From an uncultured virus (IMG/VR IMGVR_UViG_3300042308_001786) (taxonomy: Duplodnaviria; Heunggongvirae; Uroviricota; Caudoviricetes): 64,000 bases of DNA. How positions within the stretch are numbered: the stretch's first letter is position 1; each line of letters starts with the position of its first letter. Positions 3,736-19,784 of this stretch are shown in pieces. The stretch lies in the IMG/VR virus record IMGVR_UViG_3300042308_001786; one strand, 5' to 3'. A program made the translations under genes and the position numbers. The notes under the pieces were generated by a model that was given only the letters and a program-made list of their open reading frames with translations, made no database searches and was not told where the DNA came from.

Positions 3736-4176
3736 ATGGACACGCATCAGCCTTCCTTCATTGTTGAAGGCACACCACTGGCCCCCACAGTTCACATTGT
3801 GCTTCCTCCTGAGCTTCAGGAAGATGCCAAGGCTCTAGCAGCAGAAAACGTGCATCCTGCATGGTCTAAAGCACAGCATCGCGGTCGTCATTTCGTAATA
3901 ACGACCAACTTGCTGGACGATCTGTCTGAGCTGGCAGACTATGCAAGGGTGGGCATTGAAGAGCCTGAGCCTAATCTTTCCAAGCGGAAGCGCCAGGCCC
4001 TGCAAATTCTGCTTGACAGGACTAATAGGCATGTCGTGCTAGAGCCTATGGGCGCTTGCCACTGCATTGCCACCAAATGGCGGGACAGGCCATTGCCAAG
4101 CCATAAGGCTGCGTATCGCACCACGCTTGAACTGAGGGAGAAGGCAGGCTCTGTTAAGAATTGTTACAACGCTTGA
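3736..4176 (+). CDS. hypothetical protein
   Basis: 146 aa ORF with ATG start. Confidence 0.6.
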   Translation: MDTHQPSFIVEGTPLAPTVHIVLPPELQEDAKALAAENVHPAWSKAQHRGRHFVITTNLLDDLSELADYARVGIEEPEPNLSKRKRQALQILLDRTNRHVVLEPMGACHCIATKWRDRPLPSHKAAYRTTLELREKAGSVKNCYNA

Positions 4177-4201
4177 CCTGTCCTGCTGAAGGCGGCATAC
4201 T
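4153..4201 (+). promoter_or_regulatory. promoter with upstream HLR1-like direct repeat
   Basis: GTTAAGAATTGTTACA, then TTGACC-17 nt-CATACT. Confidence 0.55.
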
Positions 4202-4247
4202 ACTGGGCATGCGGGCGAGAGCTTGCATGCCCTTTCTCTTTAAAGCA

Positions 4248-4583
4248 ATGACTACAAGGTTCTATCATTGGTTAGGCGAAGAAGGCGGTATTAGCGCCTT
4301 TCATGGCAACAATCTTGTGATGAGCCTCGGCTCTCCCATGGTCAATGTCAATATCAGCCTTCAAGAACTACAAGAATTTATTTGCACATTAGAAAAGGCT
4401 TCTGATGAAGAACCTAATGCTGTGCAACAATTTGCTCTTGATGCCATTCGCCGCGTATTTGAAGCAGCCCTGCAGCACCACAAGAAAGACCATGAAGCCC
4501 TTGTCGAAGAAGCTCCTACTGGCGCAGATCTGGAAGAATATTTGCTTTCTTATGCACGTGCCATCAAAGAAGGAGCTTTGTGA
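4248..4583 (+). CDS. hypothetical protein
   Basis: ORF downstream of the promoter. Confidence 0.6.
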   Translation: MTTRFYHWLGEEGGISAFHGNNLVMSLGSPMVNVNISLQELQEFICTLEKASDEEPNAVQQFALDAIRRVFEAALQHHKKDHEALVEEAPTGADLEEYLLSYARAIKEGAL

Positions 4584-4585
4584 GC

Positions 4586-4759
4586 ATGGCCTTCTTTACT
4601 GATGGTGATTATGACAACGATCCCGATCTTGATTGGGAGCGCCCTCAACGCTTAAACAGACAGCTTTCTCTCCAGCAACTGGAGGGTCGTTTAGAGCTAT
4701 GGAAACAAAAGCATGAGGATATGTGCCTTAAGCTTTACCGTGCTGCCACTGGCATTTAA
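4586..4759 (+). CDS. hypothetical protein (MAFFTDGDYDNDPDL...)
   Basis: Read manually, 57 aa; AGGAG upstream; fills the gap between neighbours exactly. Confidence 0.55.
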   Translation: MAFFTDGDYDNDPDLDWERPQRLNRQLSLQQLEGRLELWKQKHEDMCLKLYRAATGI

Positions 4760-4761
4760 TC

Positions 4762-4983
4762 ATGAGCAAATTTACCAAGCTTCAGGAAATGCTGGGAGAG
4801 GCTCTTAACAAGAGGGCCGATGATCAGCAGGTGGTGGAAGTGATTGACACAATGGCAGAATGGTTTGAACTTCTGCTGGAAGACATGGGCGTTGAACCAG
4901 CTTCCATTCCATCGCTTCTTCGCTGGCAGTATTTGCACAGTGACTACGCCAACAAACAAGCTATCGGCATTGAAAATGACTGA
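4762..4983 (+). CDS. hypothetical protein
   Basis: 73 aa, tightly packed. Confidence 0.6.
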   Translation: MSKFTKLQEMLGEALNKRADDQQVVEVIDTMAEWFELLLEDMGVEPASIPSLLRWQYLHSDYANKQAIGIEND

Positions 4984-5308
4984 GAATCATTCCTTCCCCA
5001 TCACCCCACCGCCGGAGCTGGTGCAGCAGTGGCTGGAAGAGCTGTACGGCGCCCCAGTTTCTGTGATTAGCCCGTTTGATCAACGCGTTCTTATAGCTGT
5101 CGCCCAATGGGGCGCAGACCAAGAGCTGGAGGCGTGCTGTGAGTGGCTCAAAGCCGATCCAGAACTTGTTGATGAAATCCGCGCTGACCGCCGCCCCAAG
5201 CCGCCGAGCTTTAAGGAACAGGCCATCGCAGTTCTAGATGACGCTGAACTGGACGCAGCCCACTACAACATTCTTCTCCGCGCACTGGAGGCCCTGCCCG
5301 ATGACTGA
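4976..5308 (+). CDS. conserved cyanophage hypothetical protein
   Basis: PITPPPELVQQW...AQWGADQELEACCEWL...RRPKPPS motif, recalled from cyanophage small proteins. Confidence 0.7.
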   Translation: MTENHSFPITPPPELVQQWLEELYGAPVSVISPFDQRVLIAVAQWGADQELEACCEWLKADPELVDEIRADRRPKPPSFKEQAIAVLDDAELDAAHYNILLRALEALPDD

Positions 5309-5501
5309 CATGAACTGGGCGAACGCCAAGAGCGAACTGAACACACTCATCACTGAGTTACGTCTTGTCTACGAAAATCTGCCGTCTTTTTACTCTGACT
5401 CCGTGAAGGGATGGGATGTGGACAACGTGTACACAGCATCCAATCATCTCCGAGCCGCTATCGAGGCACTTAAGCCACTTACAAATAGGCGTCATGTTTA
5501 A
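5301..5501 (+). CDS. hypothetical protein
   Basis: ATG overlapping the previous stop. Confidence 0.55.
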   Translation: MTDMNWANAKSELNTLITELRLVYENLPSFYSDSVKGWDVDNVYTASNHLRAAIEALKPLTNRRHV

Positions 5502-5536
5502 CTCAATTTTCAGCTATTTCACTTTGAGGCAACTTG

Positions 5537-5743
5537 ATGACTGACGAACCGCATGTGGGTGAGCTCAAGTGGCAGGGCGAGCCTCAGAACTCTCCTGTTG
5601 AGCTGTGGGATGGGAAGCAGTGGGTACTCGTAGGCTGTTCCACACCGACGGATGAGGAGCTGAAGGCTCTTTACTGGGAACGGATGGCGGCCGTCACCCA
5701 AGGACTGGGACACCATCCGCCGCGCACTGGAACAACTCGATGA
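5537..5743 (+). CDS. hypothetical protein
   Basis: Short ORF in the operon. Confidence 0.5.
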   Translation: MTDEPHVGELKWQGEPQNSPVELWDGKQWVLVGCSTPTDEELKALYWERMAAVTQGLGHHPPRTGTTR

Positions 5744-6219
5744 CTGACTACAAAGCAACCCCCGCACAGTGGGCAAATGTGCAGAAATTCGCCACCGTTG
5801 CCGGTGAGTCCTGCATCCTCGAACTCCGCGCCAGGGTCGAAACACTGGAGGCTGCAGCTCACAAACACATCGTCGAAACCAGCGCCAGCATTTCGGCTTT
5901 GATAAGTCGGATCGAGTCGTTGGAAGCCGCTGAACGCCAAGCCTCAAAGGTCCATCAAATCAGCGAACCGCTGAAGTTGACACCTGATCAAGCGAAACAA
6001 GTCAAAGACCAGTTAGGACTCAATTTAAAGTCAACTCCTGATTCAAACCAAATTGTTAATTATCGATTGGTGGAGCGAGTTGAAGATGCTTTAATGGAGA
6101 GCATCAAGGATCAAGGCTCTATGGCCCGTGCCGCGATCCGTGAGGTGGCAATGTGGATGCGTGAGAACGAAGTCGGTTATACAGCCGCTCGCTGGCTGGA
6201 GCAGGAGGCAAATCTATGA
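5740..6219 (+). CDS. hypothetical coiled-coil cyanophage protein
   Basis: CILELRARVETLEA and ARAAIREVAMWMR motifs; ATGA overlap. Confidence 0.7.
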   Translation: MTDYKATPAQWANVQKFATVAGESCILELRARVETLEAAAHKHIVETSASISALISRIESLEAAERQASKVHQISEPLKLTPDQAKQVKDQLGLNLKSTPDSNQIVNYRLVERVEDALMESIKDQGSMARAAIREVAMWMRENEVGYTAARWLEQEANL

Positions 6220-6398
6220 CTGACTACAAGTTTGTGCCACTGGACACGCTGGAGAATCGCCTTGGCGATGCTTTGGGCTTGGCACTCAGCATGATCCGCA
6301 AGCCTGAAACTATCGACAACAAAGCCATGGCTCAGATTGAAGCACCATTCAAAGAATGGTGCGACGGTCTCGTTGATGGAGGACTGCTCAATGACTAA
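6216..6398 (+). CDS. hypothetical protein
   Basis: ATGA overlap; begins MTDYK like the previous gene. Confidence 0.6.
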   Translation: MTDYKFVPLDTLENRLGDALGLALSMIRKPETIDNKAMAQIEAPFKEWCDGLVDGGLLND

Positions 6399-6687
6399 AC
6401 TTTCACTCGCCGCAGAAGCAGTTTTGGATGCCTATATGAATAACTGTGGCTGGCTCGATGGTCCGTTTGAAAAAGATTATCGCTGTGCTGCTGCCGTTCT
6501 TCGTGCTGCTGCGGATCAAGTTGCTCCTGGGGTTTACTTTGTGTACACGGGCAATCGTGACTGGGATCACGGCATGGAAGCAAGAAACGATGCGATCCGT
6601 GAGGCAATTTTCGCAATTGCTACCGAGCTTGAAGCCATTGACGAGGAATATGATTTCGTCATCACTACTGAGCTTGAAGCCCAGTAG
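6391..6687 (+). CDS. hypothetical cyanophage protein
   Basis: LSLAAEAVLDAY...AAAVLRAAADQV motif; terminator follows at about 6703-6731. Confidence 0.65.
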   Translation: MTKLSLAAEAVLDAYMNNCGWLDGPFEKDYRCAAAVLRAAADQVAPGVYFVYTGNRDWDHGMEARNDAIREAIFAIATELEAIDEEYDFVITTELEAQ

Positions 6688-7224
6688 TCACTATCTCTAT
6701 CTAAAAGGTCCCTGATGGGGCCTTTTCTTTTGCCCAGCTATGGTCTCCGGGAATAGGCTCTGTTCCATATTCCCAATCATCATATTGCTCACCATTTCTC
6801 AACCATCGTGCAAGACGTTCACGCTCTTGCTCAACAGACAATTTCCTTTCCATAAAGAATCGGCTGGCCTTCTATAGCCTACTGTCGGCCAACTATGTAT
6901 AGGCACAAAGAAAGGGGGCCGAAGCCCCCTCTCTCTGCGCAGCCTCCGATACCCAACAACAACTAGGGGAAATCTCCTCGCCTAGAAGGGAAATGTGCCT
7001 CTCAGGAGAATGACTAGCTCCCTGGCAAAGCCATACAGCATTGCCCACACTTCCGTCAAGTGTCCACCCTCACGGCCCGCCTTGCGACAGGAGAAGCAAT
7101 TAAGCCTCTAGAACCGACTGCTCCATAAGCATAGCATCCAGCAAGCCCCTTGACAGACATGGCACAATGGTAAGACTGTCGCCAGCGATGGCGATGGGCC
7201 TCTCTAGTTCTTTTCACCAGCTTG

Positions 7225-7581
7225 ATGCTTTCACGATTTCTTCTTTCCCTCTTGCTCCTCGCTCCCCTTTTCCCAACGCCTGCTCATGCAAGGCAATGCG
7301 GCACCGCCTCGCACTATGGCATTGGAGATGGTTACGACGGACAACGCACTGCCAGTGGTGCTCGATTCAATGCCTACGGCTCCATTGCTGCCCACCCATC
7401 GCTTCCATTTGGCACACGCCTCCTTGTAACGAACCGTGACAATGGAAAGCAGACTGTGGTGACCATCCTTGATCGCGGCCCATACTACGGGGGACGCATG
7501 ATCGATTTGTCCTATGGCAGCTTCTCAAAGATTGCTTCACCCAGCCAAGGCACTGCCCGCGTCTGTATCGCTCGCCTCTGA
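7225..7581 (+). CDS. rlpA: RlpA-family septal ring lytic transglycosylase (double-psi beta barrel)
   Basis: Signal peptide; ASHYG, TASG, AAHPSLPFGT, DRGPY and RMIDLS motifs. Confidence 0.9.
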   Translation: MLSRFLLSLLLLAPLFPTPAHARQCGTASHYGIGDGYDGQRTASGARFNAYGSIAAHPSLPFGTRLLVTNRDNGKQTVVTILDRGPYYGGRMIDLSYGSFSKIASPSQGTARVCIARL

Positions 7582-7585
7582 AATC

Positions 7586-7777
7586 ATGGCTAAGAACCTT
7601 GCTTCTTTCATGCTTGTCACCTTCGCCTTTGGGCTTGGTGCCTTTGCTCTGGTAGCCGCCCCTCAGGCAATGCCAAATCAAGAGGGCTTGACAAAATGCC
7701 TCAAGCTCCACCCAGAACGCTATTGCCGCATTGCCAATGGCTTCCCGGTTGATCCCCTTGACAACGCCGTGCAGTAG
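7586..7777 (+). CDS. small membrane or secreted hypothetical protein
   Basis: Hydrophobic N-terminus; CLKLHPERYC motif. Confidence 0.6.
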   Translation: MAKNLASFMLVTFAFGLGAFALVAAPQAMPNQEGLTKCLKLHPERYCRIANGFPVDPLDNAVQ

Positions 7778-7786
7778 CTCTATTGT
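7758..7786 (+). promoter_or_regulatory. sigma70-type promoter
   Basis: TTGACA-17 nt-TATTGT. Confidence 0.7.
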
Positions 7787-7861
7787 TCCCTCGGGAACGC
7801 GGGAGAGCCCCTTCGGGGGCCTCTTTCCTTCTCTAGTCCTTTGCCAGCGATGGCTCCTCCA

Positions 7862-8140
7862 ATGACTAAAACTGACAAAATCAAAAGCTTCATCTTCAAT
7901 GCTGGTAGCAGCATTGTGAACGTGCGCTTTGTAAAAGCAGACGGCTCTGTTCGCAGCCTTTGCTTCAATCCTCGTGACACTAAGGAAATCAAAGGCACAG
8001 GCACTGCCGTAAAGAAGCCTTCAATCATTCGCTGCCGTGATTTCACCATTGCTCGCAATGTAGGCGAAGGTGCATGGCGCTCGTTTGATTGTGAGCGCGT
8101 GTTGAGCATCAAAGCTAACGGTCAAACCCTCACCTTCTGA
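7862..8140 (+). CDS. WYL_2/DUF2693-like SH3-fold protein
   Basis: VRFVKADGSVR...D...AWRSF pattern. Confidence 0.55.
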   Translation: MTKTDKIKSFIFNAGSSIVNVRFVKADGSVRSLCFNPRDTKEIKGTGTAVKKPSIIRCRDFTIARNVGEGAWRSFDCERVLSIKANGQTLTF

Positions 8141-8143
8141 ACA

Positions 8144-8383
8144 ATGACCTGCACTCCCTTCCTAACTCGCTCTCAGCGTGCCATCTCTCGCATGGTGAAA
8201 GATGCTGGCTATTCTTTATCAAGCTATTCTCGTGATGATCGTTCTGCTGCTCGCTCTAAGCTTCTGGCCCTTGTTCATAAAGCCCCTCAGCATGCCCCAG
8301 CAAGTCAACCAAATAAGCGCACAAAAGCTTTCTTCCTAACGCTTGCTGACAGTATGCAAGACGATATCTGGCGCTTCTTGTAA
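8144..8383 (+). CDS. hypothetical protein
   Basis: 79 aa, tightly packed. Confidence 0.6.
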   Translation: MTCTPFLTRSQRAISRMVKDAGYSLSSYSRDDRSAARSKLLALVHKAPQHAPASQPNKRTKAFFLTLADSMQDDIWRFL

Positions 8384-8574
8384 TGGCATTAAAGGACAAT
8401 AGACGCGCATTGTTTGAGCTTGTTAAACAACACGGCTTTGTTCTTCATAGAAAGAACAAGCACTACGTGTTTAAGCATTCTTCTGGCAAGACTCTCGTTT
8501 GCAGCACAAGCTGCACTGATTGGCGGGCATTGAAGAATGTAGAGCGTGACATTAAGCGCCTGTTGTCCTCATGA
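8383..8574 (+). CDS. HicA-like (dsRBD-fold) protein
   Basis: 63 aa basic; GFVLHRKNKHYVFKHSSGK...DWRALKNVERDIKR resembles phage HicA-like proteins. Confidence 0.55.
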   Translation: MALKDNRRALFELVKQHGFVLHRKNKHYVFKHSSGKTLVCSTSCTDWRALKNVERDIKRLLSS

Positions 8575-8780
8575 AATTCTCCGTTGGTACTATTGTTGAT
8601 TTGTATGACGTTGGCTTTAAACAATGGAGGGGGGAGTATATTATTGTCAAAGCTATTCCTGAAACTGGTTTATACAAAATCAAAAACACTAAAACTAACA
8701 GCCAGCAATTTGTTAAGGAAAAAGCATTAAGAATAGGCCGCCTCGGCCCCTTCCGCATTGAAAGCCTCCACGCTTCGTAA
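8571..8780 (+). CDS. small SH3/KOW-like hypothetical protein
   Basis: MKFSVGTIV... beta-rich pattern. Confidence 0.55.
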   Translation: MKFSVGTIVDLYDVGFKQWRGEYIIVKAIPETGLYKIKNTKTNSQQFVKEKALRIGRLGPFRIESLHAS

Positions 8781-8860
8781 AGTTTTGTGACAGGCCATGG
8801 AAACAGGGCCTTTCTGCTGTATTGTTCTCTCAGTTCAGGCAGCGATGCCCCTCCGAATCA

Positions 8861-9082
8861 ATGAAGCACTATCCTTCCTACGAGGCCCGTCTCGAAGCTG
8901 ACCGTCAGGCACAGCACAGCGGCTACGGCATTCGCCCTTTCCTCTGCGCAGATGGTTCCACGAAGTGGGAAGCTTATGGCTGGGAACGCATCACTGAATT
9001 CCAGCTTCACGACACCAGCTACGGCCTTTTTGATCAGAAATGGGAGGCCGAACAATATTTCAACAGCATCATCCACGGCTGA
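8861..9082 (+). CDS. hypothetical protein
   Basis: ORF following the promoter at 8777-8825. Confidence 0.6.
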   Translation: MKHYPSYEARLEADRQAQHSGYGIRPFLCADGSTKWEAYGWERITEFQLHDTSYGLFDQKWEAEQYFNSIIHG

Positions 9083-9119
9083 GCCCTCCTTATCCTCCTC
9101 ACCCTCCGCAACCTCCCTA

Positions 9120-9377
9120 ATGGCAACTGTTCCCACTCTCCATCTCAACGGCACTGGCAAGACCACGCTCCGTGATGAATACGCTGCTGCCTACGATGCC
9201 CTTACCAAAGCCCTAGAAGCTTTTGCTTCTACAACGTGTAACGGGCGAGATTTCTATCCGCAAGGTCCTGATGCTTACTATCAAGCTCGTGATGAACGCT
9301 CTGAAGCCTTTGGCCACATTGAAGCAGCAAGGAAATACGTTGGTGAAGTACTGATGGGCATCTGCGATCAAATGTGA
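9120..9377 (+). CDS. hypothetical protein (PTLHLNGT...NGRDFYPQG family)
   Basis: Recurrent small phage protein motif; C/T-rich leader. Confidence 0.7.
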   Translation: MATVPTLHLNGTGKTTLRDEYAAAYDALTKALEAFASTTCNGRDFYPQGPDAYYQARDERSEAFGHIEAARKYVGEVLMGICDQM

Positions 9378-9507
9378 TAGTATCGCTTCGCCCAATTTTT
9401 CTTCATTGGAGCGTTACCGGCAACTGAGTGTCGTTAAAGCCTCGCCTCGTGAAGCTTGGCCTAGCTCAGTCAAGGGCTGCCCCCGCAGCCCTCTCCCCTC
9501 TCTTTAA

Positions 9508-9741
9508 ATGACAATGCCTTATTCTCTCATTGTTGATGATGAATGGGGCGTGCCTTACGCCCTCAAGACTTTTGAAACTATTCAAGACGTGCATGATGAA
9601 ATTAGAACAATGGACGAAGCATTAGACAATGTGGGGCCTGGTGCAGCGTATGCCATTCGCTGTATTATTGACCAGCTCAAAGAAATTGTTCACGAGGCTG
9701 AAGAAGAGCCTGACTTCCTTCCTGACCGTCCTGCTTTCTGA
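9508..9741 (+). CDS. hypothetical protein; paralog of 13459-13680
   Basis: Aligns by eye with the island ORF at 13459. Confidence 0.7.
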   Translation: MTMPYSLIVDDEWGVPYALKTFETIQDVHDEIRTMDEALDNVGPGAAYAIRCIIDQLKEIVHEAEEEPDFLPDRPAF

Positions 9742-9744
9742 ACC

Positions 9745-10044
9745 ATGCTGACCATTTCCACTTATCAAGACAACGGCCCGTATTTCCCTCCCACTAGAGG
9801 CCGCTACCAAGCGGCCCGTTTGAGAGACCTTCTCTTCCACGTCAGGCAAGCGATGGAGGATCGGGAAGACATTATTGCCGTCTTTGACCAGCAAGGCTCT
9901 TGCAGGGGCATCTGGCGCAGGGACGTTGAAGGTTACATAGACAGCGCTGGTGATGCCATCATTGATCACGATGGCTACGAGCTGATGCGTCCCGATACCA
10001 AAGAGCAATGGCTGTGGAAGAGGCTTCAGCAGGTAATGAAATGA
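9745..10044 (+). CDS. hypothetical protein
   Basis: 99 aa, tightly packed. Confidence 0.6.
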   Translation: MLTISTYQDNGPYFPPTRGRYQAARLRDLLFHVRQAMEDREDIIAVFDQQGSCRGIWRRDVEGYIDSAGDAIIDHDGYELMRPDTKEQWLWKRLQQVMK

Positions 10045-10199
10045 TTCTCGTAGATTTCTTCTCTGAAGATTGCTGCAAAGGTACAGAACTTGTTGAAGGT
10101 TGGTATTTCTATGCTGATGATGATGAAAGCTTTGTAGGAGGACCGTTTGCCAGCGAAGAAGCCGCCCTAAAGGCGGCTTTTGATGGCCATGGCTGGTGA
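10041..10199 (+). CDS. hypothetical protein (EGWYF...GPFASEEAA)
   Basis: ATGA overlap; recurrent small phage protein motif. Confidence 0.6.
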   Translation: MILVDFFSEDCCKGTELVEGWYFYADDDESFVGGPFASEEAALKAAFDGHGW

Positions 10200-10214
10200 A
10201 AACAAACTGAAACG

Positions 10215-10275
10215 CGGTAAGGGGACTAAACGAAAGACGGTATGGGGACTAAGCAGAATGCGGTATATTAGGAGC
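10215..10275. repeat. 23-bp-period tandem repeat CGGTA.GGGGACTAA
   Basis: CGGTA at 10215, 10238 and 10261; GGGGACTAA in the first two copies. Confidence 0.6.
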
Positions 10276-10422
10276 CGCCCCAGCCCCCCATTTTCGGCCT
10301 CGCTCATGCTTCTATGCGCCTACACGCATATGCGCATACACGCATGTCAGGAGACGCTGACATAGGGCTGTGTGCTGATATCCTGACTGATACTGATACG
10401 TATCCGTAGCAGATACTGGCCA

Positions 10423-10570
10423 TGATCATGATCATTCACGCTACTGATCATGATCACACTCTCGGTTGATCACGATCATGATCACGATGGCGCTTTGATG
10501 GGGATCCTCATCATGATCGGCTCTCGCTCTCTCTCATGATCACGATCCCGCTCTGATCATGATCATGATC
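10423..10570. repeat. GATC/TGATCA array
   Basis: 14 GATC counted in about 150 bp, many in 6-bp phase (CATGATCATGATCA). Confidence 0.85.
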
Positions 10571-10575
10571 CTGAT

Positions 10576-10636
10576 GTTAAGAGATGTGACAATACGGCTC
10601 CGCGCCTCTGGCTCCTCCTCTCCTTCTTTCTATTGT
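10576..10636 (+). promoter_or_regulatory. island promoter 1
   Basis: GTTAAGAGATGTGACA-39 nt-TATTGTCTCTGGCA; same architecture as 11703-11763. Confidence 0.55.
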
Positions 10637-10679
10637 CTCTGGCAAGGCCGCGAGGCCTCCTCTCTGTTCTCTGGCTCTC

Positions 10680-11054
10680 ATGCTCTCCCCTTCTCTCAGA
10701 GGCTCTGCCTCTCCCTCCTTCCCTCCTCTCTCTGATTTGATCGAGGCGCTCTCCTCTCTCCCATGGGAGGCGATCGCCTCTCAGGCTCTCGAGGCGCTCC
10801 TGTTCTCTCTGGCTCTCTGCCATGCTCTCACCGCTCGTCTCTGGCAGGCTCGAGGCCGTCTCGCTCCTCTCCTTCGCTCTGTAGCCTCCTCGCTCGAGCG
10901 CCTCGCCTCCGCTCTGCCAGAGCCTCTCTCCTCCTCCTCTCCTCGCGCTCTGTTGATCGAGGCTCTGACAGAGGCAGGAGAGAAAGCTCCCGCTCTGGCG
11001 AAGGCCTCCCGCTCCGCTCTCCTTCGCCGCGCATCTCGTCTCGGCCTCCTCTGA
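10680..11054 (+). CDS. low-complexity island hypothetical protein 1
   Basis: ATG after hairpin and pyrimidine leader; helical L/A/S/R-rich sequence. Confidence 0.55.
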   Translation: MLSPSLRGSASPSFPPLSDLIEALSSLPWEAIASQALEALLFSLALCHALTARLWQARGRLAPLLRSVASSLERLASALPEPLSSSSPRALLIEALTEAGEKAPALAKASRSALLRRASRLGLL

Positions 11055-11129
11055 GGCTCTGCCTCTGGCCTCCCCTCAAGGGAGGCCTCCCTCCTCTCCT
11101 TCCTTCTCTGTTCTCTCGCTCTCGCTCCC

Positions 11130-11327
11130 ATGGCTCCCACTCACGAACTCCTCGCCTCTGATCTCTCCTGGCCTCGCTTCTCCTTCTCCTCTCGTCGTGA
11201 GGCCGCTCTGTTTGCTCGCGAGCTCGAGGAGGAGCTCTCCTCCCCCTCGCTCTCTCCTGAGGCTCGAGCTGACAGAGAGGAGGCGCTCGAGGAGCTCCTC
11301 TCCCTTCTGTTCTCTCCCGTCTCCTGA
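11130..11327 (+). CDS. island hypothetical protein 2
   Basis: ATG after hairpin leader; amphipathic acidic helices. Confidence 0.55.
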   Translation: MAPTHELLASDLSWPRFSFSSRREAALFARELEEELSSPSLSPEARADREEALEELLSLLFSPVS

Positions 11328-11336
11328 GGCTCTGCC

Positions 11337-11513
11337 ATGCTCTCCTTTCTCGAGAGGCGCCTCGCCACAATCGAGCGCCTCCTCCCTCGCCTCTCAGGAG
11401 AGGCAGAGGAGCGCCTCCTCCGTGAGAGGCGCTCCCTCCTTCGCCTTCGCCATGGCATCCCACTAGGTGCCGAGCTCCCTCTCTCTGTTCGCTCTGCTGA
11501 TCTCTCCTCCTAA
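11337..11513 (+). CDS. island hypothetical protein 3 (MLSFLERRLATIERLLPRL...)
   Basis: Read manually, 58 aa, tightly packed. Confidence 0.5.
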   Translation: MLSFLERRLATIERLLPRLSGEAEERLLRERRSLLRLRHGIPLGAELPLSVRSADLSS

Positions 11514-11522
11514 GGCTCTCTC

Positions 11523-11693
11523 ATGGCTCTCCCTTCCTACTTACGAGCTCGGCTCCTCGATCGCGCGGAGGAGCTCGGCCTCGCCTCCTCTGGCCTCCCC
11601 TTTCTCCTCGAGGAGCTCGCTAGGTGGCTGCCGTCTCCCACGATCGAGGCCTTTCTCTCTGATCTCGAGGAGCTCTCCTCCTCCGATCTCTGA
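11523..11693 (+). CDS. island hypothetical protein 4 (MALPSYLRARLLDRAEELG...LLEELARWLPSPTIEAFLSDLE)
   Basis: Read manually, 56 aa, tightly packed. Confidence 0.55.
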   Translation: MALPSYLRARLLDRAEELGLASSGLPFLLEELARWLPSPTIEAFLSDLEELSSSDL

Positions 11694-11702
11694 CGGTCGT
11701 TT

Positions 11703-11763
11703 GTTGCGAAATATTTCAAGAGGAGCGGGAGGCTCTGGCCTCCCCCTCTATATCGCCTATTGT
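11703..11763 (+). promoter_or_regulatory. island promoter 2
   Basis: GTTGCGAAATATTTCA-39 nt-TATTGTCTCTGGCA. Confidence 0.5.
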
Positions 11764-11994
11764 CTCTGGCATGAGGCGAGCGATCGCCTTGCTCTCTCGC
11801 TTCCCTCTCATGGCTCTTGATCTCATCTCCGCTCTGATCATCACAAACACTCAGAGCTCCGGCGGTCGTTACGATCACGCCGGCGTTGCCTGCCTCTGGC
11901 AGGCGCTCCGCTCCTCCCTTCTCTGATCTCTCAAGGGAGGCCGCGAGGCCTCCCGCTCTCCTTCCCGCTCTCCTTCCCTCTCGCTCTCTGTCTC

Positions 11995-12234
11995 ATGCTC
12001 CGCTCTGTTCGCGCTCTCGCTCCTACCCTCGCTCTGTTCGCGGGCTCTGTAGGGTTCGGCCTCTGCACCGCTACCTACGGCTCTCGCATTGCTCTGGCTC
12101 CCTCCGCTAGAGAAGCGGCTCCCTTCGCCGCTCCCTTCGCTCTGTTCGCCTCTGCTGCTGCTGCATCCTTCGCTCTGGCTGCTGCTGCATCCTGCGATGC
12201 TGCTGAGAAGCTCTCCCGCTCCCCTCGCTCCTGA
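11995..12234 (+). CDS. island hypothetical membrane protein
   Basis: Two hydrophobic segments; ATG after hairpin leader. Confidence 0.5.
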   Translation: MLRSVRALAPTLALFAGSVGFGLCTATYGSRIALAPSAREAAPFAAPFALFASAAAASFALAAAASCDAAEKLSRSPRS

Positions 12235-12295
12235 GCTCCTGGCCTCCCCATAGGGAGGCCTTCTCTCTGTTCGCTCTCCTCTCTCCTTCCTTCTC

Positions 12296-13402
12296 ATGGC
12301 TCCCGCTCTCCTGGCTCCTCTCGCTCCCGCTCGCCTCTCTCGCGCTCCTCGCGCTCCTGAGCGCGTTCGCTCCCTCCTTTCTAGATTCGGGCTCTCCGTA
12401 GACTCTGTTCTGACGTCAGGCTCCGCGAATGCAAAGCTCGCAAAAGGGAGCGGCCTCGCCTTCTCATCGATTCTCCATCTCCTCCCCTCTCGCGGCCTCG
12501 CTCGAGCCGTCTCTCCTGGCTCTCATGCCTCTCCCGTGAGAGGAGAGCTCCCTGGCATCCGCGCTCTGGCAGACAGAGAAGGCCTCACCGCTCGAGCTCT
12601 CCTCTTTAATGCTTGCCCCTTCGCCTCAGAGGCCTGTCAGGAGCTTTGCCTCGCCTTCTCTGGCCACGGGGGAATCAGTCAGAGCGTAGGAGCCTGCAGA
12701 GCTCGCCGCTCCCTTGCTCTCCTTGCTGATCGTGAGGCCTTCGCTCTCTCCCTCCTATGGGCGGCTGGCCTCTCCTATCGCAAGGCCCGCCGTCTCGGCC
12801 TCCCCTTCGCGCTCCGCCTTAATGGCACTCAAGAACTCCCATGGCAGGAGGCCTGGCTCTCTGTTCGCCTCTCTCGTGAGGAGGCAGAGGCTCTCTCCGC
12901 TCTGTTCGGCGCTCCTATCCCTCAGGGCATCCGCACCATCCCTGAGGCTCTCGCATCTGTCCCCTTCCTTTCTCTCTACGATTATGCCAAGGCTCCCGTG
13001 TACGGACGCTCTGGCCTCCTGGCCATGAGACAGGCAGGCATCCATACAACGGCCTCTCTCGCTGCTGATCGTGAGGGAGGAGCCTCTCGCGCTCTTGATG
13101 CCGTTGAGGCAGGCTTCTCTCTGGCGGTTCCAATCCTGGCCAGCAAAGGAGAGGAGCTCCCGAGCTCCCTCCTCCTCCGCAATGACAGAGGCAGAGAAGC
13201 TCTCCTCCAGTGCATTGATGGGGATGCAAATGATCTCAGGATGCTCGATCCCGCTCCCGCTCCTGGCTTCTCTGGCCTCGCCGTCTTGCTCCGCCTCAAG
13301 CGATCAAGAGGAGCCGATCCTTCTGCGGCCTCTCGCTTCGCTCTCGCTCCTGACTCTGGCCTCATGGCAGGAGGAGGCTCCTACAGGTTCTCTCGCATCT
13401 GA
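12296..13402 (+). CDS. GP88-like protein (Cys-motif, radical-SAM-like phage family)
   Basis: NAKLAK, ACPFASEACQELCLA, LRLNGT, YDYAK and IDGDANDLRMLDP match my recollection of GP88-family motifs (NxKLxK, CPxAxxxCxxxC, RLNGTSD, YDYTK, DGDxxDLRFLD). Confidence 0.65.
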   Translation: MAPALLAPLAPARLSRAPRAPERVRSLLSRFGLSVDSVLTSGSANAKLAKGSGLAFSSILHLLPSRGLARAVSPGSHASPVRGELPGIRALADREGLTARALLFNACPFASEACQELCLAFSGHGGISQSVGACRARRSLALLADREAFALSLLWAAGLSYRKARRLGLPFALRLNGTQELPWQEAWLSVRLSREEAEALSALFGAPIPQGIRTIPEALASVPFLSLYDYAKAPVYGRSGLLAMRQAGIHTTASLAADREGGASRALDAVEAGFSLAVPILASKGEELPSSLLLRNDRGREALLQCIDGDANDLRMLDPAPAPGFSGLAVLLRLKRSRGADPSAASRFALAPDSGLMAGGGSYRFSRI

Positions 13403-13458
13403 GAAGCTCCTCCCTAAGGAGGCCTCAAGGCCTCCCGCTCTCCTCCTCTCTCCTTCCC

Positions 13459-13680
13459 ATGGCTCTCCCCCTCTCTCTCTCCGCTCCTGACGAATACGGC
13501 GTGAACCATAGCCTCGCCTCCTTCGCTTCTCTCGAGGAGGCAGAGGAGGCGCTCTCCTCCCTACTCTCAGAGCTCGAGACAGCCTCCCCCTCTCGTGCCT
13601 TCTCTCTCTCCTGCCTCATCTCCCAACTAGAGGAGCTCCTCCTCGAGGCCTCAGAGACTGAGGAGGAGCCTCTCTCGTGA
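13459..13680 (+). CDS. island hypothetical protein; paralog of 9508-9741
   Basis: DEYGVNHSLASF...CLISQLEE versus DEWGVPYALKTF...CIIDQLKE. Confidence 0.65.
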   Translation: MALPLSLSAPDEYGVNHSLASFASLEEAEEALSSLLSELETASPSRAFSLSCLISQLEELLLEASETEEEPLS

Positions 13681-13907
13681 TCCGCTCCTACCGTCTCCCC
13701 TCCCTCTCCTCTCGCTCCCTCCTCATCGTCTCCCGCTCCGCTCCTCCCCCTGGCCTCCCCCTCCTCGCTCGCTTCGCCTCATGGCGCTCTCGAGAATCAG
13801 GATGGCTCTCTCTCCTCTCCCTTCGCCTCCCTGGCCTCTGGCTCCTCCTCCTCCGCTCTCTCCCCTCTCAATCCCGCCTACGTAGGATCGGCTACCCGCC
13901 CTGCTAG
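13677..13907 (+). CDS. island hypothetical protein
   Basis: GTGA overlap with the previous stop. Confidence 0.4.
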   Translation: MIRSYRLPSLSSRSLLIVSRSAPPPGLPLLARFASWRSRESGWLSLLSLRLPGLWLLLLRSLPSQSRLRRIGYPPC

Positions 13908-14051
13908 CCCTCTCTATCCCGCCTTCTAGCCCCGCCTGCTGCTCTCTAGGGTGACAGGCTTTCGCTGTGCCTGCCTATAGTTATGGCCTGGTCAGTGGCC
14001 GCTGTGAGGGAATATCTCCTATGCGCATAGCCGCATAATATAAAAAATAAA

Positions 14052-14077
14052 GAAGGCCCCTATTTTAGGGGCCTTTT
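14052..14077. terminator. bidirectional terminator ending the island transcripts
   Basis: AAGGCCCCTA-TTT-TAGGGGCCTTTT with an A-run upstream, between convergent genes. Confidence 0.75.
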
Positions 14078-14474: not shown

Positions 14475-14960
14475 CTACCAGTCAAGCGAATCAACGATGG
14501 CGCGTCCAACGGCTTCTGTGACTAGTTTTAGCTCTTCATGAGAGGCATTGCTTTTGATTGTATTTGCTTTGTAACTAATAATCCATACATTATCTTTTGT
14601 GTATCCTTTAGTTGGATCAATGCGATCTAGGGAGGGGCTATTTGGAAGAGGGCGATTACCATTGCCTCGTTGAGCAGACCATTCGAGCTTGGTATTGAAA
14701 ATTGGACAATGCGAGGGAACTATTGAGCGAACAAAATCATGGTCGATATTGAACGCCAGGTTTTTAGTTTTTGCTCTTTGACGGGCATTTTTAACCATGT
14801 TGGCGGTTTGCACTACCACTGGATTGCCTCTTCGGTAGTCTGCAGAGCATTCTTTGCACTGGGAACGTCGTCCATCGCGGTTATCTTTTTGAAGACTAAA
14901 TTGTTCAATATTTTTGATGATGCCGCACGTAGAGCAGCGTTTTTCCAGCAAGACAGTCAT
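14475..14960 (-). CDS. HNH-family homing-type endonuclease
   Basis: CxxC zinc finger, CPIF, SPSLDRIDPTKGYTKDNV..IS..AN.IK. Confidence 0.8.
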   Translation of the reverse strand: MTVLLEKRCSTCGIIKNIEQFSLQKDNRDGRRSQCKECSADYRRGNPVVVQTANMVKNARQRAKTKNLAFNIDHDFVRSIVPSHCPIFNTKLEWSAQRGNGNRPLPNSPSLDRIDPTKGYTKDNVWIISYKANTIKSNASHEELKLVTEAVGRAIVDSLDW

Positions 14961-15620
14961 TGACAAGAAGCATTTGCAAAACTATAACCAGCAAAAACCT
15001 AGTCGCAGCATGCCGAAAGCAAGTCTGAAAGACGCCGCTTGAGGCATTTCAGACAATTAGCTTCTCCAATGGAGACGGCCTCAAGCCGTCGGAATGACGC
15101 ACAAAATCGCGCATTTCCTTTCCATTGCCATTAGCAAAAAGGCGGCCCAAAGCCGCCGTTCAAGCTTTTAAAGATAGAAATCGCCTGTTTTTTGGCCTTT
15201 CCCAGAAGCTACGCATAGCTTGGCCGTGTCATCACATAAGACTGACACAGCTTTTTTTTGAAATTCGCCCCTCAATGGAGAGGCTCCGTCCCTTTGGGGG
15301 ACTCCGCTACTAGGACATCGGGGCTGACCTAGCCTTTTTGCCCGTCACTTCGCGCTTTGGGCGCTCCGTTAGAGGGGAGATGTCCGGGAGGGGACTAAGC
15401 GGGAGGAGCCGGGCTTGGCGTGTGCTCCGCTTACGGTAATCGTATCTCAGCCTGTGAGTAAAATGTGGGTTTTTTCGTATCATGGCGATACAAAAGCCTA
15501 AAAATCTTCACAATTTCTTAAGGATTCAGACAGTAGATGGCGGTTTGCTGAAGAATGTATTAAATAATGCATGCGCAGTTTATGAGAAGAACTAGCGTGG
15601 TAAAACTACGGACTATTCCC

Positions 15621-15812
15621 ATGTTTGGTTTGCCAGAACGCCAGCCATTTAACTATGGTCCCTATAAGCTATGGCCATGTTTCAGCAAGCCTGAGTTTCA
15701 ATGGTTCGCTGCAGTAGACGGCGCTCCTCATTATTTCCGTACGCTTAATGAAGCAAAGCTTTTTATCAAGGACAGGCTCTCCGTCGAGGACGCTGAAAAT
15801 TTGTGCGACTGA
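15621..15812 (+). CDS. hypothetical protein
   Basis: 63 aa ORF. Confidence 0.55.
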   Translation: MFGLPERQPFNYGPYKLWPCFSKPEFQWFAAVDGAPHYFRTLNEAKLFIKDRLSVEDAENLCD

Positions 15813-15913
15813 GCCAGAGTTCGGCTCACACAAAGGAGCAATTTGCCATTAGAATAGTTGGAGCGACGACGTTGGCGCGTCTCGCTCCCGGCCACCTACT
15901 ATCTCTAGATGAC

Positions 15914-16465
15914 ATGGCAAAGCTAACACGCAGGCCACTGCCTCCGCTCGATTATTTGCACGAGCTTTTTGTTGTTGACGAAACGAGCCCTAGCGGTTTA
16001 CGGCGCAATAAGACCGTTTCCGTCAATGCGCAGCAAGGCGATGTTGCGGGCTCTTATATGCCCAAGACTCGCTATTGGACCGTCAATATTACTTATAACG
16101 GAGAAAAGCGTGCCTATTACGTCCATCGACTGATCTACGCGCTAGCCACGGGCAAAAACATTGACAACATTTTTATTGACCACATTGAAACACAAGAAAA
16201 GCACAACGTGATCGAAAATCTCCGCGAGGCATCGCATAGGGAAAACATGCGCAATCGCGGCAAGTCAAAATCAAAGTACACGAGTAATTACAAATGCGTG
16301 TATTGGAACGAGAGGCGCCAAAGGTGGATTGCCAAGATGCAAGCCGATGGTAAATACATTTGGATTGGGACTTTTCACTCCGAACTTGAAGCGGCGCGAG
16401 CTTACAACGAGGCAGCCTTAAAGCATCATGGAGAATTTGCAAGTTTGAACGACGTGCCCGATTGA
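15914..16465 (+). CDS. HNH-AP2 homing endonuclease
   Basis: VHRLIY, IDH, NVIENLR..N..N and an AP2 domain (W.AKMQ..GK..WIGTF.SELEAARAYN). Confidence 0.9.
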   Translation: MAKLTRRPLPPLDYLHELFVVDETSPSGLRRNKTVSVNAQQGDVAGSYMPKTRYWTVNITYNGEKRAYYVHRLIYALATGKNIDNIFIDHIETQEKHNVIENLREASHRENMRNRGKSKSKYTSNYKCVYWNERRQRWIAKMQADGKYIWIGTFHSELEAARAYNEAALKHHGEFASLNDVPD

Positions 16466-18026: not shown

Positions 18027-18755
18027 ATGACCGCTGCAAGCCCCTATCTCAATTTGCTTACCAAGAAGCGCTCTTGGCAGCCCGTTGCCGTGGCCAAGGG
18101 GAAAGTAACTGAAGGAGCTGAGGCGACGCTATTCAAGGCGCTTGCGCTGCGCCATCTGGAGATTCCCGTAAAGGATCTCTTGGAACAAGGCATGCAGCGT
18201 GAGCTTCCTTCGACGCCTGGCATCATTGAAACTCTTCGCTCCAATCAGGAGGATGAGGATCGCCACTTGGATGCATTGAACTATGTGGCTGATGCTCATG
18301 GCACAGATGAAAAGGCTGAAAAGGAAGTGATGAACATCTTGAAGGCATGGAATGAACATCCTGCCCACCCCATTTTGAAGGCGGGCATCATGGAGCGTTC
18401 TATTTTCTTTGTGGCACTTCCGTTCTTTCGCCAAACTGGTGACGTTGGCATGCGTACTGTTTCGCAAGACATCAGTAGGGACGAAAGGGTTCACACAGTG
18501 GCCAATGCCATGGTGAGCAAAGAGCTAGGCGAGAAAGAAAGCCAAAGCCTTGACAAGCTTCGTGCCGCCACTGCTGCTTGGCTCTTTGATGACCTCAGCG
18601 CATCGTCTAATCAGTGGCTGAACAAGGATTTTTGGCTGCGTCAGTCGAAGAGCTTGTTCTGGACGGGCAAGGCTCCTGATATGGCAGTGAGCAGGAACAG
18701 CAGGGCGATTAGTTTCTTTGAAAGTCCGAACACCTCGCTTCCTATGTATTCTTAG
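18027..18755 (+). CDS. nrdB: ribonucleotide reductase class I beta subunit (ferritin-like)
   Basis: DEDRH and DERVH ExxH motifs, ERSIFF; directly follows nrdA. Confidence 0.85.
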   Translation: MTAASPYLNLLTKKRSWQPVAVAKGKVTEGAEATLFKALALRHLEIPVKDLLEQGMQRELPSTPGIIETLRSNQEDEDRHLDALNYVADAHGTDEKAEKEVMNILKAWNEHPAHPILKAGIMERSIFFVALPFFRQTGDVGMRTVSQDISRDERVHTVANAMVSKELGEKESQSLDKLRAATAAWLFDDLSASSNQWLNKDFWLRQSKSLFWTGKAPDMAVSRNSRAISFFESPNTSLPMYS

Positions 18756-18855
18756 AGACCCCTCGCCTCTCTTCCCAAATAGCAGGGCGCCCATTTGGGC
18801 GCCTTTTGTTCTCCACGCTATTTACTTACTACAATTAGCAGGACGAGCAAATTAC

Positions 18856-19428
18856 ATGGGAAACACCCGCAGGCCCGATGGCCGCACACTGGGCAAAGCG
18901 ATCATTCAAGACGGCAGGCGCCCTTGCACTGTCTGTGGCGAAATTAAGCCCCTTGAGGAATTTGCAAAGCATCTCAAGGGAATGATGGGTAGGCAGGGAT
19001 GGTGCAAGGAATGCGGCAATGCCAAGGCGAGGGCTCGTTACAACGGCAACGCTGAGCATTATCGCAGCAGAAGGCGCGAATCAAAGCGCGAATATGATCA
19101 AAGGCGCTATGCGGAAATGATCGCAAGTGGAAACAAGCCCAAGAGGGATCCCATTAAAGCCAAGAGCTCCTATTTGTTGCGTAACTATGGGATCAGTTAC
19201 GAGGAATACCTTTGTCTTCTAGAGAGCCAAGATCACAAGTGTGCAATTTGTGGCGCGGAAGAGTCAGACAGGAAAACTAGGGAGCTAGTGGTTGATCACT
19301 GTCACGCTTCGGGGAAAGTCCGTGGCATGCTTTGCCAAAAATGCAACTTAATGCTTGGCAATGCAAATGATTTGATTAGTACACTAGAGCAAGCCGTTAT
19401 CTACCTAAGTGACAGGGGTGAAGGTTAA
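18856..19428 (+). CDS. endonuclease VII-domain homing-type endonuclease
   Basis: YGIS.EEY...Q..KCAIC, LVVDHCH..GKVRGMLC..CN..LG. Confidence 0.9.
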   Translation: MGNTRRPDGRTLGKAIIQDGRRPCTVCGEIKPLEEFAKHLKGMMGRQGWCKECGNAKARARYNGNAEHYRSRRRESKREYDQRRYAEMIASGNKPKRDPIKAKSSYLLRNYGISYEEYLCLLESQDHKCAICGAEESDRKTRELVVDHCHASGKVRGMLCQKCNLMLGNANDLISTLEQAVIYLSDRGEG

Positions 19429-19714: not shown

Positions 19715-19784
19715 GACGGTTAAGTGTTGTGGTACACGTTGGGCAGATAGCCCAGAATGCCAGGTTCGATTCCTGGGGCTGTCC
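19715..19784 (+). tRNA. non-canonical tRNA-Ile(GAT)-like gene
   Basis: Full cloverleaf with perfect T-arm CCAGG-TTCGATT-CCTGG and loop CA-GAT-AG; A8/U14 and A33 deviate from consensus. Confidence 0.55.

Follow-up and report, generated by a model that had tools for sequence, protein, structure and literature searches.

A strand-specific, adenine-poor gene cassette in an S-CBS4-like cyanosiphovirus, with a possible role for hardening of its message against ribonucleases

The uncultured virus IMGVR_UViG_3300042308_001786 (Caudoviricetes) was analysed over a stretch of 64,000 nucleotides (nt), here called the window, in which about 3.4 kb depart sharply in composition from the rest. This island (10594..13955, + strand) has an A-poor, C-rich coding strand written in a restricted vocabulary, and is a real, discrete cassette of co-oriented genes in an S-CBS4-like cyanosiphovirus. 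Its statistics indicate that a strand-specific demand on the nucleotide sequence has dragged protein composition along. The favoured explanation, to which a probability of about 40% is given, is that the messenger RNA (mRNA) of the cassette is hardened against ribonucleases directed at A and U; for this we infer the transcription starts, the stability of the RNA and the identity of the nuclease involved. An earlier sequence-only reading of the same DNA had named avoidance of nucleases at the mRNA level as an alternative and had preferred evasion of DNA defences by first-entering DNA. Strand bias, the position of the boundary, hairpins and the depletion of motifs now favour the former.

Base, dinucleotide and k-mer counts bear out the abrupt switch to a C/T-rich + strand built from few words. 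In 10590-13960 the + strand has A 0.111, C 0.403, G 0.227 and T 0.259, compared with A 0.261, C 0.228, G 0.248 and T 0.262 in the window outside the island, a net shift from A to C with T unchanged. The coding strand of the island is 66% pyrimidine and its GC content reaches 63%, against ~48% elsewhere in the window. Across 11-14 kb, the GC skew is -0.26 to -0.28 and the AT skew -0.30 to -0.43, values unique within the window. Observed/expected ratios are low for the dinucleotides AC (0.33), GT (0.32), TT (0.45) and TA (0.46) and high for CT (1.75), TC (1.60), AG (2.15) and GA (1.99). The hand counts that had been given for 10681-11280 (GT 10, AC 6, AA 5, TA 1) were reproduced exactly, and both copies of HIP1 (GCGATCGC) stand where they had been placed, at 10770 and 11780, being the only two in the window. 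Over 12 islands (38.7 kb), CTC is raised 2.8-fold and GAG 5.2-fold, and ACC, AGT, GGT, GTC and ACT fall to 0.18-0.27; a forbidden 3-mer was sought in the same 38.7 kb and none was found, all 64 trinucleotides being present. The island holds 1067 distinct 6-mers, and the lowest other window of equal length 1863. Null sequences give 1737 +/- 34 (mononucleotide), 1335 +/- 45 (first-order Markov), 1237 +/- 37 (second-order Markov) and 1437 +/- 20 (codons shuffled within reading frames). Because the count falls below all of them, the low k-mer diversity is not explained by base skew, and mononucleotide skew as the full cause of the depletion is excluded. No special reverse-complement symmetry of the vocabulary was found, r being 0.6-0.8 in the islands and 0.85-0.91 in ordinary sequence. 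As a separate observation, 12 of the 63 GT dinucleotides of the island sit in the word CTCTGTT, often extended to CTCTGTTCGC (10662-12900); it occurs in various reading frames and in three 5' leaders.

The count of about eight co-oriented, tightly packed open reading frames (ORFs) proposed for the region also stands, the cassette being made up of eight or nine. Nine ORFs lie on the + strand with gaps of -4 to 76 nt, except for an o4-o5 spacer of ~115 nt that contains a promoter-like unit (P2, below):

10680..11054, + strand: o1, 124 amino acids (aa), no family match, conserved, differences mostly at codon position 3
11130..11327, + strand: o2, 65 aa, acidic, conserved
11337..11513, + strand: o3, 58 aa, conserved, with a longer N terminus in several relatives
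11523..11693, + strand: o4, 56 aa, acidic, conserved
11810..11926, + strand: o5, 38 aa from the ATG at 11810 (the same frame is listed as 11771..11926, 51 aa)
11995..12234, + strand: o6, 79 aa, hydrophobic, Ala-rich, conserved
12296..13402, + strand: GP88-family protein, 368 aa
13459..13680, + strand: o8, 73 aa, very acidic
13677..13907, + strand: o9, 76 aa, GTG start after GAGGAGGAG, conserved core

Five of the small ORFs (o1, o2, o3, o4 and o6) are syntenic in most of 30 related loci, and in most comparisons their differences fall at codon positions in the order 3 > 1 > 2. For GP88, differences at positions 1/2/3 number 23/15/101 against one relative (L005) and 76/47/160 against another (L015). 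The pattern indicates that the cassette genes are real and under purifying selection at the protein level. o5 is a doubtful gene, found in only two relatives besides the window's own copy, and the coding signal of o9 is weaker than that of the other ORFs. o8 has 63-84% identity in eight related loci, with weak matches (28-38%) elsewhere in five more. Searches of Pfam and PHROGs placed none of the small ORFs in a family; judged by its sequence, o6 is probably a membrane protein.

Membership of the remaining gene in the GP88 family is clear. Its product scores 39.4 bits against PF17338 (cut-off 24.4), residues 103-320 covering profile positions 34-210 of 230, and matches phrog_1617 (E 2.1e-23); the nearest ESM Atlas clusters are GP88 and a large protein collection yields 61 homologues. 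The AlphaFold2 model is confident (pLDDT 87.5). In 34 homologues the motifs Cx6Cx3C, DGDxxDxR and YxYxK are invariant, the three cysteines being C107-x6-C114-x3-C118, so spaced that the radical SAM motif CX3CX2C is absent. These invariant functional residues have been retained despite the base bias. In a structural scan with VIA-align, 20 of the 21 top rows are radical SAM or closely similar 4Fe-4S/S-adenosylmethionine enzymes, at Z 5.0-6.6, a weak likeness to the partial (beta/alpha) barrel fold that lies below the usual chance level of Z 7-8. Foldseek returned no match at E <= 0.001, and a profile search of PDB sequences gave 0 matches at E <= 1.

The same island occurs in 30 of 34 IMG/VR loci that encode a GP88 relative (L003-L032), down to a GP88 identity of 60%; the remaining four, with GP88 identities of 24-29%, are without it. 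The syntenic islands that had been asked for in related phage contigs are thus present, always between a conserved 63-aa ORF and the reductase gene. Every A-poor segment (segments of at least 600 nt were counted) in the 30 islands has A 0.09-0.15 and C 0.32-0.44, and the bias, which is strand-specific, tracks gene direction in every locus. Fourfold sites of GP88 are approximately 55% C, 28% T, 8% A and 10% G. The composition has survived a turnover of silent sites; therefore a lasting force maintains the bias. An assembly artefact is likewise excluded: besides these 30 loci, the stretch turns up whole or in part in 24 public runs of 18 studies, for the most part metagenomes of lakes and fresh water. 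Of the 24 runs, 11 contain half or more of the words sampled and none is recorded as RNA, and contigs from four runs span the stretch piecewise. In four runs labelled as subsurface metagenome, 28-32% of the sampled words are present, which is not evidence on the bias in dark habitats.

More distant GP88 cassettes, in L038 (46% identity) and L039 (42%), are also A-poor (0.12-0.15) and GC-rich between ordinary flanks. They are without the CT/AG vocabulary (AG observed/expected 0.4; C 0.34 and G 0.32 in L038), and A-poverty is therefore the older trait, the extreme pyrimidine vocabulary being peculiar to the S-CBS4-like group. The same cassettes bear on the avoidance of R-loops as an explanation. 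A C-rich, G-poor RNA on a purine-rich template forms the weakest kind of RNA-DNA hybrid, and cyanobacteria are not known to have Rho, so that heavy early transcription of such an operon would leave no hybrids behind. The unique skews over 11-14 kb are what such a pressure would produce. However, the distant cassettes are A-poor without an excess of C over G, and the depletion of TT, TA and AC/GT, as well as the hairpins described below, would go unexplained; R-loop avoidance is very unlikely to be the cause.

The level at which the force acts can be read from the codons. The frequency of A is 0.10, 0.15 and 0.09 at codon positions 1, 2 and 3, and over 537 nt of non-coding DNA it is 0.084; CTC is found 137/108/110 times in the three frames. 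Because all codon positions and non-coding DNA are equally affected and CTC is independent of frame, the force bears on the nucleic acid and not on codons. This agrees with the earlier proposal of a constraint at the nucleic-acid level that is paid for in amino acids. Silent choice depends on context, T being shunned after T and G (CTT 15 vs CTC 137, CGT 14 vs CGC 51, GGT 2 vs GGC 35), and purines are shunned at silent sites throughout (CTG 21 vs CTC 137). The proteins, which had been described as rich in L/S/A/P/R and poor in K/N/T/V/I, do have such a skew by amino-acid counts: abundant residues are L (19.4%), A (15.6%), S (14.2%), R (9.6%) and P (6.8%), scarce ones K (1.0%), N (0.7%), T (1.9%) and V (2.2%), and the depleted residues also include I, Y, Q and D. 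The shifts match A>C changes (I>L, T>P, K>R, Y>S, D>A), with L, P, R, S and A up and I, T, K, N, Y and D down. Saving of nitrogen was considered by hand from the amino-acid table and rejected: Arg is enriched, so the proteins save none.

A constraint on translation would be another way to obtain such codons, whether through a codon set readable by a few tRNAs with G34, avoidance of tRNAs cut by anticodon nucleases (Lys, Asn, Thr, Tyr, Gln) or fit to a GC-rich host for the first round of translation. Codon choice is indeed extreme (CTC for 137 of 182 Leu, GAG for 60 of 67 Glu, CGC for 51 of 90 Arg), the residues K, N, T, I, Y and Q are scarce, and both the island and the distant cassettes are GC-rich and A-poor. 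Yet the bias is no weaker in non-coding DNA, CTC is as frequent in one frame as in another, k-mer diversity lies under the codon-shuffled null and Glu, encoded by GAG, is not depleted. The abundant T-ending codons (GCT 77, TCT 53, CCT 29) would also be unusual for GC-rich picocyanobacteria. This explanation has little probability.

Seen from the template, the replacement of A by C is a replacement of T by G. Ultraviolet (UV) hardening of the template strand would exploit this, fewer T's and pyrimidines letting the operon be transcribed from incoming DNA damaged by sunlight. Relative yields of pyrimidine dimers were taken as TT 0.68, CT 0.16, TC 0.13 and CC 0.03. With these assumed yields, the predicted dimer load is 26.7/kb on the island template against ~76 elsewhere on both strands, i.e. 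2.9-fold lower, and 74.8 on the coding strand of the island. The remaining template T's nevertheless lie in the worst context, since 79% of the coding-strand A's have a purine neighbour, compared with 56% at random, and AG and GA are twofold over-represented. Moreover, neither the AC/GT depletion nor that of TT on the non-template strand is explained. UV hardening is quite unlikely to account for the island.

The boundaries of the bias coincide with putative signals for transcription, which are listed here with the palindromes and hairpins of the cassette:

10313..10338, upstream of the cassette: palindrome TATGCGCATA, perfect over 10 bp, two copies of which one is mismatched, operator-like
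10420..10575, upstream of the cassette: TGATCA/GATC palindrome array, 9 TGATCA and 14 GATC within the 430 nt upstream of o1
10572..10593, + strand: conserved motif ATTGT-N5-ATTGT-NN-CAAT, in the window given as ATGTT-N5-ATGTG-ACAAT (TGTNNCAAT), resembling an extended -10 element
10631..10658, + strand: P1 unit, with the -10-like TATTGT (10631-10636) and the hairpin AGGCC-GCGA-GGCCT with a GNRA loop (10645-10658)
11067..11087, + strand: intercistronic hairpin GGCCTCCC-N5-GGGAGGCC
11694..11726, + strand: spacer of ordinary composition after the o4 stop, with a terminator-like hairpin and a degenerate ATTGT...CAA motif
11727..11790, + strand: P2 unit, with the hairpin GGGAGGC-TCTG-GCCTCCC (11727-11744) and TATTGT (11758-11763)
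11773-11790, + strand: second hairpin of the P2 unit, GAGGCGA-GCGA-TCGCCTT, with HIP1 inside
11935..11954, + strand: hairpin GGGAGGCC-GCGA-GGCCTCCC
12241..12260, + strand: hairpin GGCCTCCC-CATA-GGGAGGCC
13418..13435, + strand: hairpin GGAGGCC-TCAA-GGCCTCC
14020..14029, downstream of the cassette: exact copy of the palindrome TATGCGCATA
14051..14077, both strands: terminator-like hairpin of 12 pairs, T run on both strands

The conserved promoter-like motif was found in 18 of the 23 loci searched. In all 12 non-redundant loci A drops from 0.21-0.31 to 0.06 no more than 25 nt after it; a TATTGT follows ~40 nt past the switch point, and a hairpin begins 7-10 nt after the TATTGT. Taking P1- and P2-type units across loci together, there are 25 distinct cases of TATTGT plus hairpin. 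Their mean folding energy is -12.5 kcal/mol, against -6.2 kcal/mol for 32-mers of island background, and 18 of the 25 lie at or below the 10th percentile of that background. The loop is of the GNRA type in 22 of the 25 (GCGA 19, GCAA 2, GAGA 1), the 5' end itself being unmapped, and at least three unrelated stems (AGGCC, GAGGCGA and GAGACGG) carry it. An Rfam scan gave nothing at the gathering score, the best hit being whalefall-1 with 24.6 bits against 37. The bias lapses in the spacer with the second copy of the motif, and the cassette may be divided in two at 11684-11790, where a terminator-like site is followed by another promoter-like unit. The cassette is thus probably one or two transcription units, bounded by the promoter-like motif and the terminator. 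The terminator that had been claimed is present (a 12-pair hairpin and T run at 14051-14077); the promoters claimed with it are predictions from the sequence only. With its T runs on both strands, the terminator appears to close the cassette in both directions and to shield it from the minus-strand gene downstream.

The palindrome TATGCGCATA lies beside the cassette in 16 of 40 loci, the distant L038 included, and on both sides of it in six, counting the window (L009, L010, L012, L014, L023 and L038). It may be a pair of operators or the mark of a mobile cassette. At the position of the TGATCA array, close relatives (L008, L009, L015, L018, L023 and L025) have arrays that differ from one another, the types being TGATCA, AGTAC..GTACT (GTAC-type), GAGAATCATTCTC, TTAACC and TGATACGTATCA; from their sequences, they look like diverging sets of operators or iterons.

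Boundaries near the edges of the operon would also be expected if the bias came from mutation, i.e. from a local, transcription-coupled or otherwise strand-specific trend of A to C and purine to pyrimidine under which the proteins drift and no selection acts on the RNA. The even effect on codon positions and non-coding DNA, and amino-acid shifts of the kind expected from A>C, speak in the same sense. The sign, however, is opposite to the known transcription-associated asymmetry, in which the coding strand loses C because C is deaminated on the non-template strand: C in the island amounts to 40%. Other long + strand operons of the phage, such as that of the structural genes, are ordinary. Mutation bias would not readily explain why the choice between C and T depends on context (CTC over CTT, CGC over CGT, GGC over GGT), why k-mer diversity lies under the second-order Markov expectation, or why the bias lapses exactly where a DNA signal is needed. 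Mutation alone is an unlikely source of the island.

Collectively, the transcript is indicated as the target by a bias that keeps to one strand and begins at a promoter-like element, by the capping hairpins and by the type of words removed. Purines of the coding strand, above all A, are replaced by C, and T is left almost only between C's. In the mechanism envisaged, host RNase E and other ribonucleases directed at A and U would then find few single-stranded A/U-rich sites in the transcript. The few purines would sit in runs that can pair with the abundant CUC and CCU words. The ends of the transcript would be capped by the GNRA-loop hairpin just after the -10-like hexamer, by the intercistronic hairpins and by the terminator hairpin; 5' stem-loops are known to stabilise bacterial messages. 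Ahead of the hairpin-led cistrons lie pyrimidine-rich leaders that have no Shine-Dalgarno sequence.

Several observations agree with such a mechanism. Cyanobacterial RNase E cleaves RNA in single-stranded stretches that carry A at -4/-3 and U at +2 (PMC8682795). Motifs of this type are depleted 3- to 14-fold in the island relative to the + strand elsewhere, and beyond what composition alone would give: per kb, A(-3)..U(+2) occurs 22.5 vs 69.0 times, A..WU 5.3 vs 39.8 and RNWUU 1.8 vs 24.5. In predicted structures, 74% of the purines and 39% of the pyrimidines of the island are paired, the values for a control gene being 51% and 62%. With purines few, clustered and, by prediction, mostly paired, single-stranded stretches would therefore be nearly pure C with isolated U. 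During cyanophage infection, long antisense RNAs protect mRNAs from RNase E (PMC3113571). PMC5397173 describes few Shine-Dalgarno sites in cyanobacteria and C just upstream of start codons, which fits the CU-rich leaders. The distant A-poor cassettes in L038 and L039 also count in favour of a force on RNA.

As to function, the cassette products (GP88 and seven or eight small proteins, several of them acidic and one membrane-like) could, by analogy, be early or host-takeover genes. The early timing is suggested by the small acidic proteins and by the placement of GP88 near an early promoter in cluster A mycobacteriophages. In mycobacteriophage Turbido only one gene separates the GP88 homologue from the right genome end, and in L5 and D29 the early lytic promoter Pleft lies at that end (PMC5712189).

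Other findings weigh against a hardened message. Structure beyond that of dinucleotide shuffles was sought in the island RNA and not found (z -0.74, control gene -0.80), and the A's of the island are paired no more than in shuffles (0.54 vs 0.55). U overall is not depleted (26%), and the avoidance of G at silent sites, seen in the preference of CTC over CTG, is unpredicted by avoidance of RNase E alone. Were TATTGT the true -10 element, the start would be preceded by ~45 nt of biased DNA, and at the other end the last ~95 nt before the terminator are unbiased. One operon alone would be hardened, the other genes of the phage being ordinary. Changes polarised on recent branches run Y>R 128 vs R>Y 87, in counts from overlapping triplets in which selection, mutation bias and parsimony error are inseparable. 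A phage-encoded RNase E was considered as well and rejected. The ORF at 2163-2912 (+) is homologous to S-CBS4 gp086, which carries the annotation 'Rnase E'. By Pfam the ORF contains no RNase E/G domain; it matches phrog_645 and, weakly, helix-turn-helix families (GerE, E 0.0014), and the annotation of gp086 is probably wrong.

The explanation that the sequence-only reading had preferred, a first-entering or terminal segment with a minimal repertoire of k-mers that offers no targets to sequence-specific DNA defences before phage countermeasures act, is not supported. It predicts the shortage of distinct k-mers relative to every null, and distinct palindromic hexamers number 18 in the island, other windows having 23.8 on average (range 16-33). 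Taken as a class, however, palindromes show no depletion. In the 12 islands, the mean log2 observed/expected (Markov) is +0.115 for 16 palindromic tetramers and +0.087 for 31 palindromic hexamers, against -0.065 and -0.20 for non-palindromic tetramers and hexamers. Palindromic hexamer sites total 69 in the island, the highest value in the window (25-50 in other windows of equal length), so the depletion of sites known from T5 and T7 is not found here.

The rest of the genome avoids about a dozen hexamers that the island tolerates. In the window outside the island, where expected counts are given as the range across two models and come to ~7-26 for each avoided hexamer, CAGCTG (13-26 expected), GCGCGC (11-22), GGGCCC (10-11) and CGATCG (7-13) are absent; AGGCCT has 1 copy (13-17 expected), CTCGAG 1 (8-13) and GAGCTC 3 (13-17), and ACGCGT, GCCGGC and GACGTC have 1 copy each. 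The island alone has CTCGAG 15, GAGCTC 17, AGGCCT 13 and CGATCG 4 times, or 49 of the 54 copies in the window, the other 60.3 kb (1-10400 and 14100-64000) holding 1, 3, 1 and 0. Because it concentrates hexamers avoided elsewhere, the island is the least restriction-proof part of the genome for such sites. The flanks of 13 relatives (111 kb) avoid a similar set. In the relatives' islands (42.5 kb), CAGCTG (0 vs 7.5 expected) and GGGCCC (3 vs 15.5) are avoided as in the flanks, from which CAGCTG is absent, a point for site evasion, whereas GCGCGC (44 vs 48) and GCCGGC (13 vs 13) are not. A C-5 cytosine DNA methyltransferase is encoded at 20996-21919 (+; PF00145, E 1e-48) and may bear on which GC-rich palindromes are tolerated.

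The asymmetry of the strands is a further obstacle. Readers of duplex DNA see sites in either orientation, and therefore site avoidance would not give a bias on one strand; a defence of this kind would not be expected to leave A at 11% and T at 26%, with T 2.3 times as frequent as A. As for the position of a genome end, GP88 genes lie near one in cluster A mycobacteriophages, in favour of first entry, but nothing places a terminus at the island. The junction of the S-CBS4 record was tried as a marker of a genome end and is uninformative: the ends of the record are without a terminal repeat and look arbitrary, one falling within sequence that matches 9742-9930 in translated comparison. Contigs from three of the four runs break at 10383-10448, inside the TGATCA array, which is not evidence of physical ends. 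Taken together, evasion by first-entering DNA is very improbable indeed.

The setting of the cassette is that of a cyanophage. PHROG scans of 62 ORFs recover an S-CBS4-like siphovirus gene set, with a primase/helicase fragment, ribonucleotide reductase, large terminase, portal, protease, major head protein, tape measure, tail fibres and endolysin. Between the window and Synechococcus phage S-CBS4 the major head proteins are 86.8% identical, and the gene order of the window is the S-CBS4 order. The S-CBS4 genome is without the cassette, window positions 9742-9930 corresponding to the last 200 nt of its record and 15690-15821 to the first 220 nt. A DNA search of a phage collection with the island gave no match. 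Bacterial genomes gave three (L037, L038 and L039), all short contigs binned as metagenome-assembled genomes of Aquiluna, Victivallales and Gammaproteobacteria; they are probably phage contigs, mis-binned or captured from infected cells, and the bin names are unreliable as host labels. HIP1, with 2 copies in 64 kb where 1.1 would be expected, was rejected as a host marker. Genes for HNH, endonuclease VII or homing endonucleases, at least eight in all, are dispersed along the window; several adjoin core genes (reductase, terminase) or lie between them where S-CBS4 has none. They are listed here with the single tRNA gene:

14475-14966 (-), 15803-16465, 18718-19428, 22165-23049 (-), 24925-25662 (-), 36072-36605 (-), 61412-61975 and 62951-63568: HNH, endonuclease VII or homing endonuclease genes
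19715-19784, + strand: tRNA-Ile, anticodon GAT

The island is a rare, clean case in which all the proteins of an operon have been reshaped by a demand on nucleic acid, an effect retained across phages with saturated silent sites. The competing pressures become measurable through the difference from the remaining genome, which avoids palindromes that the island tolerates. If the mRNA is the target, phages would have a route to express their first genes in an RNA-degrading cell, and an A-poor, pyrimidine-rich operon behind a GNRA hairpin would be a signature for immediate-early or counter-defence genes in uncultured phages. It is tempting to go further, more tentatively than for the hardened message itself. 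Widespread freshwater cyanophages might keep a nuclease-proof first operon, its message made of C, isolated U and paired purines and capped by GNRA hairpins. Selection on the RNA, by host RNase E or by abortive-infection ribonucleases, would override both protein sequence and the avoidance of restriction sites, and the bracketing palindromes would mark a module moving between phage lineages. If true, counter-defence would here be written into base composition instead of being carried out by a protein. Full-text literature searches on S-CBS4 and cyanophages, pyrimidine-rich cyanophage DNA and adenine-poor phage early genes found no account of the phenomenon.

Known systems resemble the island in part. 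Purine loading (Szybalski's rule) and pyrimidine-loaded viral genomes share with it a purine/pyrimidine asymmetry that follows transcription and affects amino-acid content, but the sign of the island is reversed relative to Szybalski's rule, and its asymmetry is extreme (66% pyrimidine) and confined to one 3.4-kb phage operon. Messages free of ACA, immune to MazF, likewise owe their immunity to synonymous and near-synonymous choice of sequence; there one short motif is removed, whereas the island depletes the base A and the steps U-U, U-A and AC/GU with no 3-mer absent. The pre-early (first-step-transfer) region of T5 and the class I early region of T7 have lost particular restriction sites on duplex DNA, without strand asymmetry or rewriting of proteins. 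Like the island, they hold small promoter-proximal genes thought to act first, with sequence statistics unlike the rest of the genome; unlike them, the island has abundant palindromic sites and a strand-specific bias, and its first entry is hypothetical. The right-end early region of cluster A mycobacteriophages (Pleft, L5 genes 89-88) has the namesake of the GP88 family near an early lytic promoter and a repressor with many operator-like sites (PMC5712189); GP88 identity to these phages is only 27-29%, and no comparable island is claimed there, none having been looked for. A parallel in the same host group is the protection of mRNAs by antisense RNA during cyanophage infection (PMC3113571), where likewise transcripts must survive RNase E by masking or lacking single-stranded sites. 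There a duplex gives the protection; here, where the two-way terminator would block the entry of antisense transcription, it would be the base composition of the sense RNA itself, if the hardened-message reading is right.

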